DNA of 64,000 nt from Candidatus Aminicenantes bacterium (GTDB taxonomy: Bacteria > Acidobacteriota > Aminicenantia > Aminicenantales > Saccharicenantaceae). The stretch lies in assembly GCA_963736255.1 (NCBI GenBank), contig CAVTOI010000003.1, positions 1,684,400-1,748,399 of the forward strand, read 5' to 3'. Below, in pieces: positions 2,703-60,266 of the stretch; the first letter of the stretch is position 1, and each line of letters starts with the position of its first letter. Under the pieces are notes generated by a model, which did no database searches, was not told where the DNA came from, and saw only the letters and a program-made list of their open reading frames with translations. A program made the position numbers and the translations under genes.

Positions 2703-4528
2703 CGGCCGCAGAGCTCCCGCGCCGCCCGGGCGATATGCGAGGCGCTGATCCCGAACCGCTCCAGGAGCTCGTCCGGCTTCCCGGAGCGGGGAAGCTCGCG
2801 GATGCAGAGGTGGCGGAGGGCCGCCTGTCCGGCCAAGGCCTGGGCGACGGCCTCGCCGAGCCCGCCGGCGGCGTAATGGTCTTCGACGACGACCGCCCGG
2901 CCGCCGGTCCCGGAGACCTCCCGCAGGATCGTGGCCTTGTCCAGGGGCGCGACCGAATACGCGTCGATAACGCGGAGGCCGAGGCCCTCCTTCTTGAGAG
3001 CCTCGAACGCCTTTAGGGCTTCGTGAACGGTGATCCCCGCGGCGATGACGGTGACCGCGTCCCCCTCCCCTTTCCGCAGCACCTTGGAGCCGCCGATGGG
3101 GAAGGTCTCGTTGGCGGGATAAAGGACCGGCGTCGCCGGGCGCGAGGCGCGGATGTAGCACATCCCTTTGTGGGCCGCGGCGGCCGCGACGCAGGCCTCC
3201 GACGAGACCGCGTCGCTCGGGTAGAGCACGACGCATCCCGGGATGGGCCGGAACATGGCCAGGTCCTCGAGACCCATCTGGGACGGCCCGTCCTCGCCGA
3301 TGCTGACCCCGACGTGAGAGCCGCAGATCTTGAGGTTGGAGAACGAGTAGGCGGCCATCCGGATCTGGTCGTGGGCCCGGGTCAGGAAGGCGGCGAAGGT
3401 GGCCATGAACGGCAGGTAGCCTTTGGCGGCGAGCCCCATGCCCACGCCGACCATGTTCTGCTCGGCGATGTAGGATTGGAAGGACCGGCCCGGGAAGGCC
3501 TCGAAGAATTTGTCGGCGTAGGTCGAGTTCTTGACGTCGCCGTCGATGGCCACGACCTTGGCGTTGACCTTGCCCAGGCTGAGCAGGGCGTTGCCGTAGG
3601 CCAGTCGCGTCGCCGTCTTCTCGGTATAGGCCGTGCGGGGGAAATCGAGGGCCGCCGCGACCTTCTTTTTGACGAAGGGCTTGGGCCTATGGACGAACCG
3701 CTTGGAATCGACGTCGGGAAGGCAGCCGGTCTCCTCGAGGGCCCGGGCCAGCTCGTCGGCCTTGAGGGGCTTGCCATGCCAGCCGTTCTTGTCCTCGATG
3801 AAGCTCACGCCCTTCCCTTTGAGCGTCCGGGCCAGGATGACCGTCGGCTGGCCCTTCTTGCCGGTTAGCTTGAGGGCCGCCAGGATCCTGTCGATCTTGT
3901 GGCCGTCGACGATGAGGGCGTCCCAGCCGAAGGCCCGGAACTTGCGGGCCAGGGCGGGGAGATCGTGCTGGTGCATGGTCCGGTCCGACTGGCCGAGCCC
4001 GTTGACATCGACGACGGCGACGAGATTGCGGAGTTTCCAACAAGCCGCGGCGGCGGCCGCCTCCCAGACCTGGCCTTCGGCGCATTCGCCGTCGCCCATG
4101 AGGACGAAGGTCCGGGCCGGGGATCTATCGAGACGCTGGGCGAGGGCCATCCCGACGCCCACGGAGAGCCCCTGACCGAGCGAGCCCGTCGCGGCCTTGA
4201 CCCAAGGCATTCGGGGGGTCGGATGGCCCTCGAGGTCGCTCGTGATCTTCCTGAGATCGAGAAGGCTCTCGAGCGGGATTATGCCGGCCTCGGCGTAGAC
4301 CGCCCAGAGGAGGGGGGCGGCATGGCCCTTGGAGAGGACGAATTCGTCGCTCCCCGGGTCGCCCGGGTCCTTGGTATTCCAGCGCATCTCCGAGAAGAAC
4401 AGGCAGGCGGCGAGGTCGGCCGCGGAGAGGCAAGTTGTCGGGTGTCCCGAGCCGGCCACGGTGGTCTGGCGCAGGGAATGGATGCGGAGGCGGGTGGCGA
4501 TTTTGCGGAGATCGTCGATCTTGGCCAT
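2699..4528 (-). CDS. tkt: transketolase
   Basis: Full-length transketolase: thiamine-diphosphate-binding region GHP...GDG, pyrimidine-binding domain and C-terminal domain. Start taken at MAKIDDL, preceded by GAGGAG. Confidence 0.9.
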   Translation of the reverse strand: MAKIDDLRKIATRLRIHSLRQTTVAGSGHPTTCLSAADLAACLFFSEMRWNTKDPGDPGSDEFVLSKGHAAPLLWAVYAEAGIIPLESLLDLRKITSDLEGHPTPRMPWVKAATGSLGQGLSVGVGMALAQRLDRSPARTFVLMGDGECAEGQVWEAAAAAACWKLRNLVAVVDVNGLGQSDRTMHQHDLPALARKFRAFGWDALIVDGHKIDRILAALKLTGKKGQPTVILARTLKGKGVSFIEDKNGWHGKPLKADELARALEETGCLPDVDSKRFVHRPKPFVKKKVAAALDFPRTAYTEKTATRLAYGNALLSLGKVNAKVVAIDGDVKNSTYADKFFEAFPGRSFQSYIAEQNMVGVGMGLAAKGYLPFMATFAAFLTRAHDQIRMAAYSFSNLKICGSHVGVSIGEDGPSQMGLEDLAMFRPIPGCVVLYPSDAVSSEACVAAAAAHKGMCYIRASRPATPVLYPANETFPIGGSKVLRKGEGDAVTVIAAGITVHEALKAFEALKKEGLGLRVIDAYSVAPLDKATILREVSGTGGRAVVVEDHYAAGGLGEAVAQALAGQAALRHLCIRELPRSGKPDELLERFGISASHIARAARELCGR

Positions 4529-5981: not shown

Positions 5982-7013
5982 CTACAGGATCGGCCAGGCC
6001 TTCGGCAGGAAGATCTGCTCGTAGAGGGCCATGGCGTAGCGGTCGGTCATGCCGGCGATGAAGTCCCCGGCGCGGACGATGACCGGGTCGCCCGGGGGAT
6101 AGGGGCGGATGTAGTCCTCGGGACGCTCCATGATATAGCCAAAGAGGTCGGTGATGATCTTTTCGGTCTTGCGCAGCTCGTCGCGCGCCGCCGAGTTGAA
6201 ATAGACTTTCTGATAGAGATATTCCCGGAGCTCGACGACGGCCTTCATGATCCTCTCGCTCATGGCGATCCGCTCCAGGTCTGTCGCCAGGCTGGCCTCG
6301 ACGACGTCCATGACCATCCGGTCGATCCGCGTCGCGTGCCACTTGCCCAGGACCTTGACAAGGCCGGCCGGAATGTCCTCGTCCTTGATGATCCCGGCCC
6401 GGAGGGCGTCGTCAATGTCGTGGTTGACGTAGGCGATGACGTCGGAGACGCGGACGATCTGGCCTTCGAGCGTCAAGGGCATGTCCTCGACGTCCTCGTC
6501 GAAGATCTCGCCCCGGCCTTTGGAGTGTTTCTGGATGCCGTCGCGGACTTCGAAGGTCAGGTTGAGTCCCTTGCCGTCGTACTCGAGCTTCTCGACGACG
6601 CGCAGGCTCTGGTCGGCATGGTGGAAGCCGTGCGGCAGGAGCTTTCGCAGCGTCTGCTCGCCGGCGTGGCCGAACGGGGTATGGCCGAGATCGTGGCCCA
6701 GGGCTATGGCCTCGGTCAGGTCCTCGTTGAGGCGGAGGGCCTTGGCGATCGTCCGGGCGATCTGCGAGACCTCGAGGCAATGCGTCAGCCGCGTCCGGTA
6801 GTGGTCGCCGAACGGAGAGAGGAAGACCTGGGTTTTGTGCTTGAGGCGACGGAAGGATTTCGAGTGGATGATGCGGTCGCGGTCGCGCTGGAAGTCCGTC
6901 CGCAGGACGTGCTGAGCTTCGGGGCGGACGCGGCCCCTCGACTTGGCGCTGAGGCAGGCCTTGGGCGACAGGAACTGCTGCTCGGTATTCTCCAGCTCTT
7001 CGCGGATGGTCAT
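5982..7013 (-). CDS. dgt: dGTP triphosphohydrolase-like HD-domain phosphohydrolase
   Basis: 343 aa; HD motif ([10 protein letters not shown]...[11 protein letters not shown]) with the architecture of short Dgt-like dNTPases. Confidence 0.85.
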
Positions 7014-7065
7014 CGATTCTCTCCCCGGACGCGGCCGATTATAGCAGACGGGGGGCGTCGGGCGC

Positions 7066-7169
7066 CAGCCAAGACGGGGTCAAACCTTAATTCTTATAAT
7101 TTTATCCCCCGCCGATTGATAGCAATCCTAAGTTGCCAGGAAAAATTATAAGAATTAAGGTTTGACCCC
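7066..7169. repeat. AT-rich perfect hairpin: 28-bp stem, 48-nt loop, termini GGGGTCAAACCT / AGGTTTGACCCC
   Basis: Arm 7066-7093 is the exact reverse complement of arm 7142-7169. It lies between the divergent dgt and yggS starts and shares its termini with the hairpin at 50081-50172. Confidence 0.8.
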
Positions 7170-7189
7170 TTCTTTGATAAAATGAAGCG

Positions 7190-7852
7190 ATGAGCGGAAC
7201 GATCGCCTCGAACGTCAAGGCCATCCTGGCGGAGCTGCCGCCGGGGGTCGAGCTCGTCGCCGCGGCCAAGACCCGCTCCGCCGCCGAGATCCTCGAAGCC
7301 GTCGACGCGGGCGTCAAGACGATCGGCGAGAACTACGTCCAGGAGGCGGACGTCGTCTTCTCTGCCGTCGGCCATCGGGCCCGCTGGCATTTCATCGGCC
7401 ATCTCCAGACGAACAAAGCCAAGAAGGCCGTTGAGATCTTCGACCTCGTCGAGACCGTGGACTCGATCGCGCTCGGACGCGAGCTCGACAAGCGCGCAGC
7501 GGCGGCCGGAAAGACGATGGAGGTCCTGGTCGAGGTCAACAGCGGCCGCGAGCCCCAGAAAGCCGGCGTGATGCCCGACGAAGCGGAAGCCGTGGTCCGA
7601 TCCCTCGCAGCCCTGCCCCACCTTCGCGTCCTTGGCCTCATGACCATGGGCCCGTTCGAAGGCGATCCCGAGGATTCGCGGCCTTATTTCAAGGAGACGA
7701 AGCGCGTCTGGGACACGGTCAAGGCCCTGGCCATCCCCGGCGTCGAGATACGGCATTTATCCATGGGCATGTCCCATTCTTGGAAGATCGCCATCGAAGA
7801 GGGGGCCACCATGGTCCGCATCGGAACGGCCATCTTCGGACCGCGTCCCTAG
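7190..7852 (+). CDS. yggS: YggS-family pyridoxal-phosphate homeostasis protein
   Basis: 220 aa; alanine-racemase N-terminal-like PLP barrel (AAKTRS...IGHLQTNK...). Confidence 0.9.
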   Translation: MSGTIASNVKAILAELPPGVELVAAAKTRSAAEILEAVDAGVKTIGENYVQEADVVFSAVGHRARWHFIGHLQTNKAKKAVEIFDLVETVDSIALGRELDKRAAAAGKTMEVLVEVNSGREPQKAGVMPDEAEAVVRSLAALPHLRVLGLMTMGPFEGDPEDSRPYFKETKRVWDTVKALAIPGVEIRHLSMGMSHSWKIAIEEGATMVRIGTAIFGPRP

Positions 7853-49494: not shown

Positions 49495-50073
49495 ATGGAC
49501 GCAAAACCGCGGCTGTTCAAGACCAAGCAGGCCTGGCGGGCGTGGCTCGCTGCCAACCACGATAGATCCAACGGGATCTGGCTCGCCTATTACAAAAAGG
49601 GGAGCGGAAAGACTTCCGTTACGTACGAGGAGGCCCTGCAGGAGGCGCTCTGCTTCGGCTGGATCGACTCGTTGGTCCGGAGTCTCGACGAGGAGCGCTA
49701 CGCCCAGAAGTACACGCCCCGGAACTTGAAGTCCATTTGGTCGGCGGCCAACAAGGCCCGCGTCAGCAAGCTCATCGCCGAGGGCCGTATGTCCCCTCCC
49801 GGCCTGGCCAAGATCGAAGCCGCCAAGCGCAATGGTTCCTGGGACCGCCTCAACGACATCGACAGGATCGGCCGGGGCGCGGCCGTTCCCCCGGACCTTC
49901 TCGAGGCCCTGGGCAAGGTGCCCCGGGCCCGAGCCCTCTTCGAGGGACGGCCCCCGTCGGAAAAGAAGCTCTGGACTTTCTGGATCCTCACCGCGAAAAG
50001 GCCGGAGACACGGGCCCGCCGGATCGCGGAAACGGTCCAGCGCGTCCTGGCCGGCCGCCGGCCGGGGATATAA
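49495..50073 (+). CDS. YdeI/OmpD-associated family protein
   Basis: 192 aa; conserved ...ALCFGWIDS... core of the YdeI-like family. Confidence 0.7.
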   Translation: MDAKPRLFKTKQAWRAWLAANHDRSNGIWLAYYKKGSGKTSVTYEEALQEALCFGWIDSLVRSLDEERYAQKYTPRNLKSIWSAANKARVSKLIAEGRMSPPGLAKIEAAKRNGSWDRLNDIDRIGRGAAVPPDLLEALGKVPRARALFEGRPPSEKKLWTFWILTAKRPETRARRIAETVQRVLAGRRPGI

Positions 50074-50080
50074 AACGAGA

Positions 50081-50172
50081 GGGTCAAACCTACACCTTTT
50101 TAGTTTTTAGTTTTTTCCGGCCGGAATTCATCCAGTTGCCCGGCAAAAACTAAAAAGGTGTAGGTTTGACCC
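50081..50172. repeat. AT-rich perfect hairpin: 28-bp stem, 36-nt loop, termini GGGTCAAACCT / AGGTTTGACCC
   Basis: Arm 50081-50108 is the exact reverse complement of arm 50145-50172. It lies between the convergent ydeI-like and GH109-like genes, and its termini and CCCTTCTT flank match the hairpin at 7066-7169. Confidence 0.8.
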
Positions 50173-50180
50173 CTTCTTCC

Positions 50181-51539
50181 CTAGGCCTCGATGATCCCCA
50201 GGGGCGGGTTCGTCTTCCACTTGCCCCTTGTGAAATCGGGGATCTCGATCGGCCGGCCCTTGCCCGCGACGCTTTTCACACTGGCGCCGACGATGGCGCT
50301 CCAGGCGGCGGCGTCGTAGACGTCCTGATCGAGCGGCTCGCCCTTGCGGAGAGACTGGATGAGCCGATAGTCCTCGATGTAGTCCATGCCGCCGTGGCCT
50401 CTCCCCTCGCCCTTCGAAGCGATGGCCTTCCAGAGCGGGTGCTCGAACTCGGCGGCGAACTTCTCGAAATCGTCCCATTGATGGGGTTTCTCCGCCTTGC
50501 CCTCGATGTAGATCCGGTCGGGCCACTTGTGGGCCAGGCCCTTGGTGCCCTGGACGAGGTTGATCCGCGTGTAGGGCCGCGGCAGGTTGGTGTCGTGGAT
50601 GAGGATGATCGTCTTGCCGAGCTTGGTCTTGATGAGGCTGGTGTTGACGTCGCCGAGGACGTAGCGTTCTTTCGCCTGCGGCGAGTCCGCCCCGAACGTC
50701 GCCACCGCGTACTCATGGAGGCCGCGCGTCGGGGAGCTCAGCGAGACGAGATAATCGAAGGCGTCGCCGCGGTTGACGTTCATGCACTGGGCCACGGGCC
50801 CGAGACCGTGCGTCGGATAGAGGTTGCCGTTGAGCTTCTCGGACCAGGCCCGCCGCCACAGCCCCTCGCCGTCGCTCGAGAACTTGACGCCGCGGAGGTC
50901 ATGGAGGTAGCCGGCCTCGCCGTGGAGGACCTCGCCGAGGACGCCTTTGCGGACGAGATTGAGCGTCATGAGCTCGATCCGGTCGTAGCAGCAGTTCTCC
51001 ATCATCTGGCAGTGCTTCTTGTATTTTTCGGCCGCTTCGACGAGGGCCCAACAGTCCTCGATCGACATGGCCGCCGGCACCTCGGTCGCGGCGTGCTTGC
51101 CGTTGCGCATCGCGGCCAGACACACCGGCACGTGCCACTCCCACGGCGTCGCCGTCATGACCAGATCGAGGTCCTCGGTCGCGCACATGCGCTCGAAATC
51201 GCGTTCCCCGTTCGAATAACCGGCAGGCTTCGGCTGCCCGGCCTCGACGATCCATTTCTGGGCCCTTTCCACGTGGGCCGGGCGGATGTCACAGATGGCC
51301 TTGATCTCGACGCCCTCGATATTGAGGTAGTTCTGGACATGGGCCGAACCCATGCCGCCGACGCCGACAAAGCCGACCTTGACGGTGGGGATGGCCGGGG
51401 CCGTGAACTGCGATCGGGCTTCGCCCGGAATGGACGGCTTGGCCTCGAGGCCGAGACCGGCCACCGCGGCGCCCAATCCGGCGGCCGCCCCGATCTTGAG
51501 GAAATCCCTCCGGCTCTGGTTCTTGGTCGATTCGCTCAT
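50181..51539 (-). CDS. Tat-secreted Gfo/Idh/MocA-family oxidoreductase (GH109 alpha-N-acetylgalactosaminidase-like)
   Basis: RRDFLKIGAAAGLGAAVA Tat signal; Rossmann motif GFVGVGGMG. Confidence 0.8.
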   Translation of the reverse strand: MSESTKNQSRRDFLKIGAAAGLGAAVAGLGLEAKPSIPGEARSQFTAPAIPTVKVGFVGVGGMGSAHVQNYLNIEGVEIKAICDIRPAHVERAQKWIVEAGQPKPAGYSNGERDFERMCATEDLDLVMTATPWEWHVPVCLAAMRNGKHAATEVPAAMSIEDCWALVEAAEKYKKHCQMMENCCYDRIELMTLNLVRKGVLGEVLHGEAGYLHDLRGVKFSSDGEGLWRRAWSEKLNGNLYPTHGLGPVAQCMNVNRGDAFDYLVSLSSPTRGLHEYAVATFGADSPQAKERYVLGDVNTSLIKTKLGKTIILIHDTNLPRPYTRINLVQGTKGLAHKWPDRIYIEGKAEKPHQWDDFEKFAAEFEHPLWKAIASKGEGRGHGGMDYIEDYRLIQSLRKGEPLDQDVYDAAAWSAIVGASVKSVAGKGRPIEIPDFTRGKWKTNPPLGIIEA

Positions 51540-57924: not shown

Positions 57925-58665
57925 ATGTCATTGATTCGCATGAAGGTCGGTATCGCCATCCTTTGCCTGGTCGGTTTCCTCGCCGCCTGCGACGACTTCC
58001 GGGATGACCGGAACAGGATGACGGAAACTCACACGGTCGCCCTCGAGGGAGCGGCCCGGGCCGAGGTGGGCGTGCATATGGGGACCGGCGAGATGAAGCT
58101 CCGGGGCGCCGTCCAAGAGGCGCTGCTCGAGGCCTCGTTCTCTTTCAACCGGGAGCGCAATCGCCCTGAAGTCGACTACCGCATGTTCGGCGACAAGGGC
58201 ATTCTGGAGGTCCGGCACGCCCGGCGGCGCGGCATCAACTTCGGCGGCAGCCGGAACAACTGGGACCTCGTCCTGGGCAACTCCGTGCCGATCGACCTCA
58301 AGGTCGATCTCGGCGCCGGCCGGAGCGAGATCGACCTGCGGGGCCTCACGCTCGAACGGGTCGAGATCGACATGGGCGTCGGTGAGACTGAGCTCGATCT
58401 GCGCGGCCCGCACAAGACGGGATTCCTGGTCAAGATCGACGGCGGCGTCGGCAGCGGCAAGATCGTCCTGCCCGCCGAGGTCGGCGTCCGGGTCAAGGTC
58501 GACGGCGGCCTCGGCTCGGTCGACGCCCACGGCCTGACCAAGCAATCCGGCGCCTGGGTCAACGACCTTTACGGGAAAAGCCCCATCACGATCGAGGTCG
58601 ACATCGACGCCGGCATCGGCAGCCTCGACCTCCGGGTCGAGCCCTCCTCGCAAATCCGGACATGA
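57925..58665 (+). CDS. lipoprotein of the DUF4097/toast-rack beta-helix family
   Basis: Lipobox LAAC; repeated (I/V)DLxxGxGxxELDLRG units. Confidence 0.6.
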   Translation: MSLIRMKVGIAILCLVGFLAACDDFRDDRNRMTETHTVALEGAARAEVGVHMGTGEMKLRGAVQEALLEASFSFNRERNRPEVDYRMFGDKGILEVRHARRRGINFGGSRNNWDLVLGNSVPIDLKVDLGAGRSEIDLRGLTLERVEIDMGVGETELDLRGPHKTGFLVKIDGGVGSGKIVLPAEVGVRVKVDGGLGSVDAHGLTKQSGAWVNDLYGKSPITIEVDIDAGIGSLDLRVEPSSQIRT

Positions 58666-58671
58666 CCAGTA

Positions 58672-58738
58672 AATGGGGACGCTTCTATTCTTTAAATTAA
58701 TGCAATTTTTTTAAAAATAGAAGCGTCCCCATTTTTTC
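58672..58738. terminator. bidirectional rho-independent terminator: 18-bp stem AATGGGGACGCTTCTATT, AT-rich loop, T-run
   Basis: Arms 58672-58689 and 58716-58733 are perfect complements, flanked by A/T runs, between the convergent toast-rack and tnaA genes. Confidence 0.7.
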
Positions 58739-58883
58739 CCCCATTATTTTCCTGTCTCGCCAATCGTGAGCGCATTCAGCTGATCCTGCAAAGGCGCCGG
58801 AATGAGGCCGCGGAAAAAGGGGCGAGGGTGATCCTCAGCGAATAGAGATGAGCCCCGAGACCCCTCAGCGACCGTTATTGGAC

Positions 58884-60266
58884 CTAGACTTCTTCGAGCC
58901 GGGCGGTGAAGTGCCGCAGGAACGGCGATTCGCGGACGATGCGCAGCCCCCTGACCTTGTCGCGGTTCTTGTAGAGCTCGATCAGGGCGTCCGCGACGTA
59001 GCGGAGATGCGAGGCCGTATAGACCCGGCGCGGGATGGCCAGCCGGACAAGCTCCAGCTCCGGAAAGGTCTCGGCCTTCCCCTTTCCCGACTTCTGCCCG
59101 AACATGACCCCGCCGATCTCGACGGCCCGGATGCCGTATTCCCGGTAGAGCGCCACCGTCAGGGCCCAGCCGGGATATTGAGCCCGGCGGATGTGCGGCA
59201 GGAACCGGTCGGCCAGGATATAAACGGCGTGTCCGCCGAAAGGCTTGAAGACGGGCACGCCGGCCTGATCGAGCAACCCGCCGAGGTAGGCCGTCTGGGC
59301 CATCCGGTGATCGAGGTAGTCCTCGTCGAGCACTTCCTTCAGTCCCCGGGCCATGGCCTCGAGGTCGCGGCCGGCCAGGCCGCCGTAGGTCGGGAAGCCC
59401 TCGCTGATGATGAGGTTGTTCTTGATCTTCTCGGCCAGCGCGTCGTCGTCGAGGGTGACGAAGCCGCCGATGTTGACCAGGGCATCCTTCTTGCCGCTCA
59501 TCGTCGCCCCGTCGGCGTAGGAGAACATCTCCTGGGCGATCTCCAGGACGCTCTTCTTGGCGTAGGCCTTCTCGCGCTTCTTGATGAACCAGGCGTTCTC
59601 GGCGAAGCGGCAGGCGTCGAAGAAGAACGGGATGCCGTAGTGGGCGCAGACCTCGCTCGTCTCCTTGATGTTCTTCAGCGAAACGGGCTGCCCGCCGCCG
59701 CTGTTGTTGGTCACGGTCATCATGACCAGCGGGACCTTCTCCGCGCCCCGCTTGTCGATGAATCTCTTGAGCTTGGCCACGTCGATGTCGCCCTTGAAGG
59801 GCAGGTCGGAGTCGGGGTCGTAGGCGGCAGCGGCGGCCAGGTCCTCCGCGCGGGCCTCGAGGACCTCGATGTTGGCCCGGGTCGTGTCGAAGTGGATGTT
59901 GCTCGGGACGCTGTCCCCTTTCCTGAGGATCGAGCCGAAGAGGATCCGCTCGGCCGCCCGTCCCTGGTGCGTGGGGATGACGTGGCTGAAGCCGAAGATC
60001 GCCCGGACGGAATCCTCGAGGTGATAGAAGTTGCGCGCCCCGGCGTAGGACTCATCACCGGTCATGATGCCCGCCCATTGGTCGTCGCTCATCGCCGAAG
60101 TCCCGGAGTCCGTCAGGAGGTCGATCGTGACCTTCTCGGCCGGAATGCCGAAGGGATTGAAGCCCGACTGCTTGAGGAGCGTCTCCCTCTCCCGTCGTGA
60201 CGTCGAGCGCAGCGGCTCGATCATTTTGATGCGGAAAGGCTCCATCGGCGGCTTGATGTCTGCCAT
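58884..60266 (-). CDS. tnaA: tryptophanase / tyrosine phenol-lyase family beta-eliminating lyase
   Basis: EPFRIKMIEP...LLTDSGT...IPTHQGRAAE... is canonical TnaA/TPL; the PLP lysine context SGKKD is present. Confidence 0.85.
   Translation of the reverse strand: MADIKPPMEPFRIKMIEPLRSTSRRERETLLKQSGFNPFGIPAEKVTIDLLTDSGTSAMSDDQWAGIMTGDESYAGARNFYHLEDSVRAIFGFSHVIPTHQGRAAERILFGSILRKGDSVPSNIHFDTTRANIEVLEARAEDLAAAAAYDPDSDLPFKGDIDVAKLKRFIDKRGAEKVPLVMMTVTNNSGGGQPVSLKNIKETSEVCAHYGIPFFFDACRFAENAWFIKKREKAYAKKSVLEIAQEMFSYADGATMSGKKDALVNIGGFVTLDDDALAEKIKNNLIISEGFPTYGGLAGRDLEAMARGLKEVLDEDYLDHRMAQTAYLGGLLDQAGVPVFKPFGGHAVYILADRFLPHIRRAQYPGWALTVALYREYGIRAVEIGGVMFGQKSGKGKAETFPELELVRLAIPRRVYTASHLRYVADALIELYKNRDKVRGLRIVRESPFLRHFTARLEEV

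Follow-up and report, generated by a model that had tools for sequence, protein, structure and literature searches.

Long AT-rich hairpins in an Aminicenantes genome as probable terminal-inverted-repeat dimers related to RayT-like Y1 transposases

A 64,000-nucleotide stretch of a Candidatus Aminicenantes genome (contig CAVTOI010000003.1, positions 1,684,400 to 1,748,399; hereafter the window) contains two long, AT-rich, perfectly paired hairpins that share their outermost nucleotides and differ in the inner part of their stems. What are these hairpins: mobile elements, transcription signals of the host, or sites recognized by a DNA-binding protein or a recombinase? The comparisons presented here make it likely that they are non-autonomous, REPIN-like dimers of terminal inverted repeats (TIRs), each arm corresponding to the TIR of elements that encode RayT-like Y1 (HUH) transposases of the TIRYT, or subclass 2.1, group.

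Two hairpins of a dispersed family

The first element (copy 1) occupies positions 7071-7174 and was recovered in an inverted-repeat search as a pair of 33-nt arms, 97% complementary. Its left arm (7071-7103, plus strand) is composed of the outer flank AAGACG, the core GGGGTCAAACCT at 7076-7087 and the inner arm TAATTCTTATAATTTT, and its right arm (7142-7174, plus strand) is the reverse complement, with the core as AGGTTTGACCCC at 7158-7169 and the flank CTTCTT. The 38-nt loop between them (7104-7141) is GC-rich, kept in orthologous copies and inverted in one relative (L121). The arms pair perfectly over 28 bp (7076-7103 with 7142-7169) and over 33 nt if one mismatch is allowed; the preliminary description of this DNA had found the perfect 28-bp repeat, placed its start at 7066, about 5-10 nt too far to the left, and overestimated the loop at 48 nt. 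Gene calls and Pfam searches confirmed the earlier placement of copy 1 between two genes that start divergently, a dgt-like HD gene on the minus strand (5982-7013) and yggS on the plus strand (7190-7852). Relatives of the window YggS that are 80-98% identical to it are named Aminicenantes by NCBI.

The second element (copy 2, 50081-50178) has arms at 50081-50108 and 50145-50172 in which 28 of 28 positions are paired, as expected from the hairpin previously placed at 50081-50172, a loop of 36 nt (50109-50144) and the flank CTTCTT at 50173-50178. It is framed by the stop codons of two convergent open reading frames (ORFs), one of 192 aa on the plus strand (49495-50073) and one, oxidoreductase-like, of 452 aa on the minus strand (50181-51539). 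Both copies have in common GGGTCAAACCT...AGGTTTGACCC together with the right flank CTTCTT, and the distance from GGGTC to GACCC is exactly 92 nt in each, so that the identity of the outer 11-12 nt and of the right flank noted before held on re-examination, as did the observation that the stems diverge between copies over their inner 16-17 nt and still pair perfectly there.

These are the two longest inverted repeats of the window, and when folded as DNA on either strand they reach -32 to -36 kcal/mol, with z-scores of -8.7 to -10.9 against shuffled sequences (about -10 for copy 1). The core occurs four times in the window against 0.76 expected, a count reached in none of 100 shuffles. An Rfam search of the window gave no match at the gathering thresholds and, below threshold, only models of plant miRNA precursors, long hairpins of a generic kind; a literature search for the core string returned primers only.

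A scan for the pattern GGGTCAAACCT-N55-85-AGGTTTGACCC, with one genome per species, matched at least 116 loci, indicating that the shared end GGGGTCAAACCT is not coincidental. The preliminary description had proposed searching other genomes for further copies with these termini, and the outcome favors a dispersed family over chance resemblance. Among the matches listed, 69 loci came from 22 assemblies labelled Aminicenantes or Acidobacteriota, according to a tally of record titles, and the others carried Desulfobacterota, Actinomycetota, Verrucomicrobiota, Nitrospirota, Planctomycetota, Auribacterota or Gammaproteobacteria labels, or uninformative ones. Viral contigs yielded no pattern matches, and a plasmid collection contained nothing similar to the window element or to the Methylomonas type considered below.

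The anatomy of the family was deduced from 122 copies, and an arm consensus was built from 243 arms, reading AAGAnG-GGGTCAAACCT-nnAnTTTTnnAnTTTT. The palindrome continues for about 6 nt outside the core, with AAGAnG ahead of GGGTCAAACCT and CnTCTT after AGGTTTGACCC, and inside the core it extends for 14-18 further paired bases that are AT-rich and fit nnAnTTTT nnAnTTTT, that is, two units of about 8 nt. Self-similarity of the inner arms was highest at lags 7-9 (0.44-0.47), compared with 0.25-0.31 at lags 3-5, 11 and 12, and the inner arms form discrete, recurring sequence families with a periodicity of about 8 nt. The earlier statement that structure rather than sequence is conserved is thus correct in that the inner arms differ and yet pair, and inaccurate in that they belong to recurring sequence families that change more slowly than the loop and the flanks. 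Taken over the 122 copies, the stems comprise 1594 Watson-Crick pairs, 22 G-T pairs and 74 mismatches; the 22 G-U pairs among 96 non-Watson-Crick pairs are near the chance level. That G-T is not enriched among the exceptions points to a two-strand palindrome maintained at the DNA level rather than to an RNA stem under compensatory selection, of which the stem pairs of the 122 copies gave no sign.

The loops are GC-rich and 22-54 nt long. The string TAATTCTTATAA is common to eleven copies, and by pairwise alignment related loops were found in a few cases only, namely the Methylomonas-type copies, the Actinomycetota copies and the pairs L081a/c and L003/L093. No evidence was found for a CRISPR-like repeat-spacer-repeat reading of the loop, and the GC content of the loops is host-like; a tRNA T-loop-like fold of AAGGTTTGACCCCTT was discarded for lack of a conserved C56 or of any other support. 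Taken singly, the arms show no self-complementarity, GTAG is absent, and CGTC was present in only about 23% of the right flanks.

The outer flank plus core (e.g. AAGAAGGGGTCAAACC) is often duplicated in tandem beside a complete element (L013, L019, L042, L085, L131, L014, L032 and L081 at 3134-3185), and at the Actinomycetota loci L027, L043, L044, L106 and L107 the entire left arm is part of a tandem repeat. Such duplicates of flank, core or arm could be remnants of successive insertions or of slippage.

Matching ends on RayT-like Y1 transposase genes

When every ORF of the retrieved loci was compared with protein profiles, three proved to be Y1_Tnp ORFs, in L081, L033 and L065. The first, a 338-aa ORF in a Desulfobacterium metagenome-assembled genome (MAG), matched Y1_Tnp (PF01797) with an E-value of 1e-11 and the NCBIfam model for the repetitive extragenic palindromic (REP)-associated tyrosine transposase with an E-value of 6e-20 (71.6 bits, below the cut-off of 80); it is located between two complete hairpins of the family, with a third 1.6 kb away. 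In L033, a Syntrophaceae MAG, a lone arm (GGGGTCAAACCTCCACTATTGAC) stands about 25 nt ahead of the start codon of the homologous gene and a family hairpin 12 nt past the stop codon, and the loop of that hairpin resembles the 5' leader of the gene. A profile made from the L081 and L033 proteins retrieved at least 7990 relatives, many of them combining PF01797 with PF08299 (Bac_DnaA_C), and the JGI name for these relatives is 'REP element-mobilizing transposase RayT'.

Three of these homologues (P0164, P0141 and P0216) were picked without knowledge of their flanks. The gene for P0164 (L207-216), found with two upstream and two downstream neighbour variants, is bounded by AGGGGTCAAACCTTAAC ... 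GTTAAGGTTTGACCCCT, and no target-site duplication was detected around this element. That for P0141 (L217-222) is bounded by GGGGTCAAACCTAAACTATTGAC ... AAGGTTTGACCCC, and that for P0216 (L223) by the variant CATTGGGGTCAACTCTCGACACTTG and its reverse complement, with the core GGGGTCAACTCT rather than GGGGTCAAACCT. Inverted GGGGTCAA(A)C arms therefore flank five of the five RayT-like Y1 genes examined (L081, L033, P0164, P0141 and P0216).

When, in a search for an Aminicenantes RayT, the homologues were ranked by amino-acid composition, used as a proxy for a GC-rich genome, the best candidate was P0216, encoded on a contig of 54% GC that is not from Aminicenantes. Its gene (L223, 4001-5347) contains an internal tandem duplication of roughly the first 130 codons (MARPIRVEFPGAVYH... 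occurs twice). Most of the RayT+DnaA_C genes (proteins P0121-P0320) are on contigs of just 1-4 kb, which is consistent with multi-copy repeats breaking metagenome assemblies.

If the hairpins belong to this group, the ends recognized by the large and poorly characterised RayT+DnaA_C (TIRYT, subclass 2.1) family are defined in sequence as GGGGTCAAACCT together with inner arms specific to the lineage, and hairpin derivatives of the family are widespread between the genes of an uncultured phylum. In annotation work, such elements would explain AT-rich hairpins in GC-rich Aminicenantes genomes, mark operon boundaries and be capable of breaking assemblies, and they would offer defined substrates for RayT biochemistry.

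Turnover, arm symmetry and competing explanations

The copy 1 site, between dgt and yggS, was compared in ten relatives. It was empty in L122 and L126, with an intergenic region of 59-62 nt, and held the window's own element in L117, L120 and L121. In L124 and L125 another arm family (ATTTTTCGTTACTTT) and another loop were present at the same left junction, in L123 the right arm had been lost, and in L118 and L119 the site was taken by a different palindrome (AAAAAGAAGGGACCAGGTCTTCG...). In the window's closest relative, L117 (98% YggS identity), the dgt-like gene (1292-1792) was called at 166 aa, compared with 343 aa elsewhere, which may reflect a frameshift or an assembly error. At the empty sites of L122 (2441-2500) and L126 (2438-2500) a -10-like TATAAT of dgt (minus strand) and TGATAAAAT of yggS (plus strand) are only about 15-25 nt apart; in the window (7013-7190) the divergent promoters are now kept apart by the element together with a GC-rich segment of about 20 nt on its left side (GGGCG..GCGCCAGCC), which the empty sites lack. 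TTGACC was considered as a -35 promoter element and rejected, given that it stands only 10 nt from the yggS -10 box and that a promoter scan was empty at copy 1.

The copy 2 site was examined in the 76 relatives with a readable downstream region, out of 80 retrieved. The family element was present only in the window, in L131 (98% amino-acid identity of the neighbour gene) and in L127 (95%); in L128 (97%) and many others it was absent and the stop codons were only 4-7 nt apart. Two relatives had GGGTCAGATCT as the core of a short variant; palindromes of other families were present in at least six, and 66 of the 76 had no perfect hairpin of 12 bp or more. Both window loci therefore show empty and filled orthologous sites, with neighbour genes 79-98% identical in amino acids, indicating fast turnover, on the scale of a few percent of protein divergence. 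The presence/absence comparison that had been suggested for this locus was in this way answered, close relatives differing at both sites.

Other palindrome families (GGGGACAYGTAC..., GGTGNCAGACAAC..., GGGGGATACAATAC...) were seen at the same intergenic sites, within the first 160 nt downstream of the oxidoreductase orthologue, in L137, L154, L157, L118 (an inner hairpin), L183, L188, L193, L184 and L169/L172/L204; several element families seem to come and go as gene-end hairpins in this lineage. The window itself carries a third long AT-rich hairpin at 58671-58734, made of AAATGGGGACGCTTCTATTCTTTAAA and its reverse complement around a 12-nt spacer (-23.9 kcal/mol, z-score -10.9), which is situated 6 nt past the stop codon of the ORF at 57925-58665 and ahead of the ORF at 58848-60200. 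It belongs to another sequence family, with no copy among 223 other loci. It begins with GGGGACGC, near the published TIRYT motif GGGGWSAS, and judging by this start it may represent a related class of element.

Sequence change is slower in the arms than in the loop and the flanks. Between the window and L120, 0 of 54 arm positions differed compared with 24 of 121 in loop plus flanks, an outcome with a chance of about 7e-6 at the flank rate by our calculation. L124 and L125 differed at just two positions in about 210 nt, and both were mirror-image, complementary changes of the core (GGGTCAAATCT / AGATTTGACCC), indicating that one arm had been copied from the other. The loop was reverse-complemented between unmoved flanks in the window relative to L121 and to L131, and two paralogous copies of one MAG, L003 and L093, differed by an inverted loop and one compensated change. 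Perfected stems and flipped spacers would both result from template switching within quasi-palindromes, an established route of mutation, and arm-to-arm conversion probably keeps these stems perfect, to judge from the patterns of change. The series of orthologous sites, with its gains, losses, replacements, loop inversions and mirror-image substitutions, constitutes a natural data set on the upkeep of long perfect palindromes.

A mobile TIR dimer of this kind might work as follows. The two arms, whose complementarity is evident, would pair into a long stem on single-stranded DNA. A transposase acting in trans would recognize the conserved GGGGTCAAACC part of the stem through its catalytic domain and, probably, the lineage-specific inner 8-nt units through its helix-turn-helix (HTH) domain, and would cut at the foot of the stem, within or beside AAGAnG / CnTCTT. 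The element would then move as single-stranded DNA by 'peel and paste' of the IS200/IS605 type, a route suggested by the enzyme family and consistent with the observed absence of duplications. Arm-to-arm copying, by template switching or gene conversion, would keep the symmetry and flip the loop, in agreement with the changes recorded above. Finally, where an element takes up the space between two convergent stop codons, as copy 2 does, it may become co-opted as a gene-end hairpin that forms an RNA 3' end or a terminator, and some copies have probably undergone such co-option.

Several observations weigh against TIR dimers mobilized by a RayT-like enzyme. The matching RayT subfamily was not found in the Aminicenantes loci examined, and none is encoded in the window; the sole Aminicenantes Y1_Tnp ORF (L065) belongs to another subfamily, with 21-24% identity and no arm upstream; and no Aminicenantes name appeared among the best 120 proteins of either homologue search. 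The core GGGGTCAA fits GGGGWSAS at seven of eight positions, with A as the last base where C or G is expected. The loops are unalignable in most Aminicenantes copies even where the arms are identical, which copying of whole elements does not predict, and the outer flank AAGAnG is kept on both sides, so that the exact boundary and cleavage sites are not fixed by the sequence. The left junction (GGCGCCAGCC/AAGAAGGGG) stays put while arm families replace one another, and outer-end remnants pile up in tandem. Lastly, the Methylomonas-type copies behave like a DDE-type MITE (miniature inverted-repeat transposable element), which shows that the core alone is no proof of mechanism.

Some of these difficulties would be met if the core were instead a site at which a Y1 enzyme, or template switching during replication, swaps or flips a module of inner arm, loop and inner arm while the outer junction remains fixed. 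Such exchange would account for unrelated loops on identical arms, for different arm families at one junction, and for the tandem outer-end remnants, the frequent loop inversions and the mirror-image core substitutions. We consider it unlikely; if true, the hairpin would be a cassette edited in place, a domesticated gene-boundary element in Aminicenantes.

The genomic context bears on a host function, that is, a bidirectional terminator, a stabilizer of mRNA 3' ends or an RNase III site conserved for that role and not for mobility. All 122 copies were intergenic, with flanking genes co-directional in 45 cases, convergent in 27 and divergent in 23. Where the 3' end of a gene faces the element, the stop codon and the core are usually separated by just 4-10 nt, the intergenic region of convergent pairs consists almost wholly of the element, as for copy 2, and the same stem, followed by CUUCUU, would be transcribed from both strands, all of which would suit such a role. 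However, sides facing gene 3' and 5' ends were balanced (99 versus 91), the 23 copies between divergent genes include copy 1, and a terminator scan of both window copies detected no canonical terminator-like site, their stems being AT-rich, 28-33 bp long and devoid of a U-tract. Termination would also leave unexplained a 12-nt core that is shared across phyla and identical to transposase TIRs, and the corresponding site has no hairpin at all in most close relatives. As the primary explanation a host function is therefore improbable; as a secondary, co-opted one it can be reconciled with TIR dimers.

The preliminary description gave a MITE-like mobile element as one of its most likely explanations, and dispersal, conserved termini and differences in presence among genomes bear out the mobile part of that proposal. 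A classical MITE, the internal-deletion derivative of a DDE insertion sequence moved by cut-and-paste with staggered target cuts, would likewise be short, bounded by TIRs, dispersed, intergenic and variable among close genomes. One set of copies fits it: a Methylomonas-labelled MAG (CAYZUM01, about 40% GC) contains six near-identical 101-nt copies with the TIR GGTAGTGGGTCAAACCTGTG and a conserved interior (L018 at 2549-2649, L021, L054, L091, L095 and L104), five of which have perfect 8-bp target-site duplications. These may be an unrelated chance match to the core pattern, and since by our estimate about two chance families are expected for a pattern of this size in so large a database, the case could be accounted for in this way. 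A search for duplications of 2-9 bp at offsets of 0-15 in the other ~113 copies found none and no excess of direct repeats, which answers in the negative, for the Aminicenantes copies, the question of target-site duplications raised earlier. Recurrent neighbour proteins belonged to ordinary families only (ABC ATPases, kinases, epimerases and permeases), neither a DDE transposase nor an integrase recurred near the elements, and every autonomous element found with such ends encodes a Y1 enzyme, not a DDE one. A classical MITE is thus quite improbable for the family as a whole.

An immobile operator or architectural site, in which a host DNA-binding protein occupies two inverted half-sites, would be compatible with arms better conserved than loop and flanks and with the two inner units of about 8 nt, which resemble iterated binding sites. 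Nevertheless, presence differs between genomes whose neighbour gene is 97-98% identical in amino acids, different arm families occupy one site, the copies stand beside unrelated genes, and the spread across phyla tracks the transposase family, so that we regard this explanation as very improbable. A folded-DNA recombination site of the integron attC or Xer/integrase type hardly merits belief, since the conserved ends around a variable interior and loop, the loop inversions such as arise between inverted recombination sites, and a GTCAAAC / GTTTGAC one position off the R''/R' consensus RYYYAAC / GTTRRRY are opposed by perfect stems with neither extrahelical bases nor an unpaired spacer, by solitary copies tens of kb apart among housekeeping genes rather than in cassette arrays, and by a Y1 transposase, not an integrase, as the only recurrent flanking enzyme. 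The IHF/Fis-like or Xer/integrase-like recognition site envisaged earlier accordingly found no backing, with nothing pointing to IHF/Fis, Xer or an integron integrase; as an IHF site, WATCAANNNNTTR does not fit.

Comparison with known systems

The hairpins resemble the REPIN-RAYT system (Bertels & Rainey 2011, PMC3116915), and the REP/BIME sequences of E. coli with TnpA_REP, in consisting of inverted doublets that form a long hairpin, in being strictly extragenic, numerous and without target-site duplication, in having variable spacers within the dimers (PMC3733652), and in the presence of a transposase gene flanked by its own repeats, here in L081. In classical REPs each unit of 20-40 nt is itself palindromic and bears an unpaired GTAG tag, whereas here a stem forms only between two arms. 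In the strict sense the window hairpins are neither REPs nor REPINs, for one arm alone makes no hairpin and the GTAG tag is missing. With IS200/IS605 elements, and with the miniature, palindrome-associated derivatives of these, they share the transposase superfamily (PF01797) and an expected single-strand 'peel and paste' that leaves no target-site duplication; those elements differ in having separate, dissimilar subterminal hairpins and no TIRs, and the proteins found here match the NCBIfam REP-associated tyrosine transposase best and carry an extra HTH domain.

Certain hairpin MITEs, such as the Neisseria Correia elements and ERIC/IRU, have been co-opted at the RNA level: small, palindromic and intergenic, they can be included in transcripts and serve there as signals for processing or termination. 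They are DDE-type, with target-site duplications and a conserved interior, unlike the hairpins described here. Integron attC sites are similar in acting as folded single strands of DNA and in keeping their ends constant while stem and loop vary, but no extrahelical bases, cassette arrays or integron integrase accompany the present elements.

The closest counterparts are the TIRYT elements, RayT-like genes flanked by long TIRs that share GGGG[AT][CG]A[CG] (GGGGWSAS), whose repeat families are moderately abundant and organised in dimers with spacers variable in sequence and length, and which include a distinct Acidobacteria group (Di Nocera et al. 2013, PMC3733652). They have been equated with subclass 2.1 of TnpA_REP, the members of which carry Bac_DnaA_C or other HTH domains (Quentin et al. 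2018, PMC6006769). The likeness extends to a Y1 gene bounded by GGGG-type inverted repeats, to dispersed inverted dimers and to a C-terminal DnaA_C/HTH domain. The present family departs from TIRYT in that the core GGGGTCAAACCT agrees with seven of the eight motif positions and is kept over 11-12 nt across phylum labels, in that hairpin dimers abound in Aminicenantes, their arms measuring 27-33 nt, their loops GC-rich and unrelated and their outer AAGAnG conserved, and in that the cognate gene was not located in Aminicenantes. On the strength of their arms, the window hairpins appear to fit the TIRYT / TnpA_REP subclass 2.1 class and would not represent a new kind of signal.

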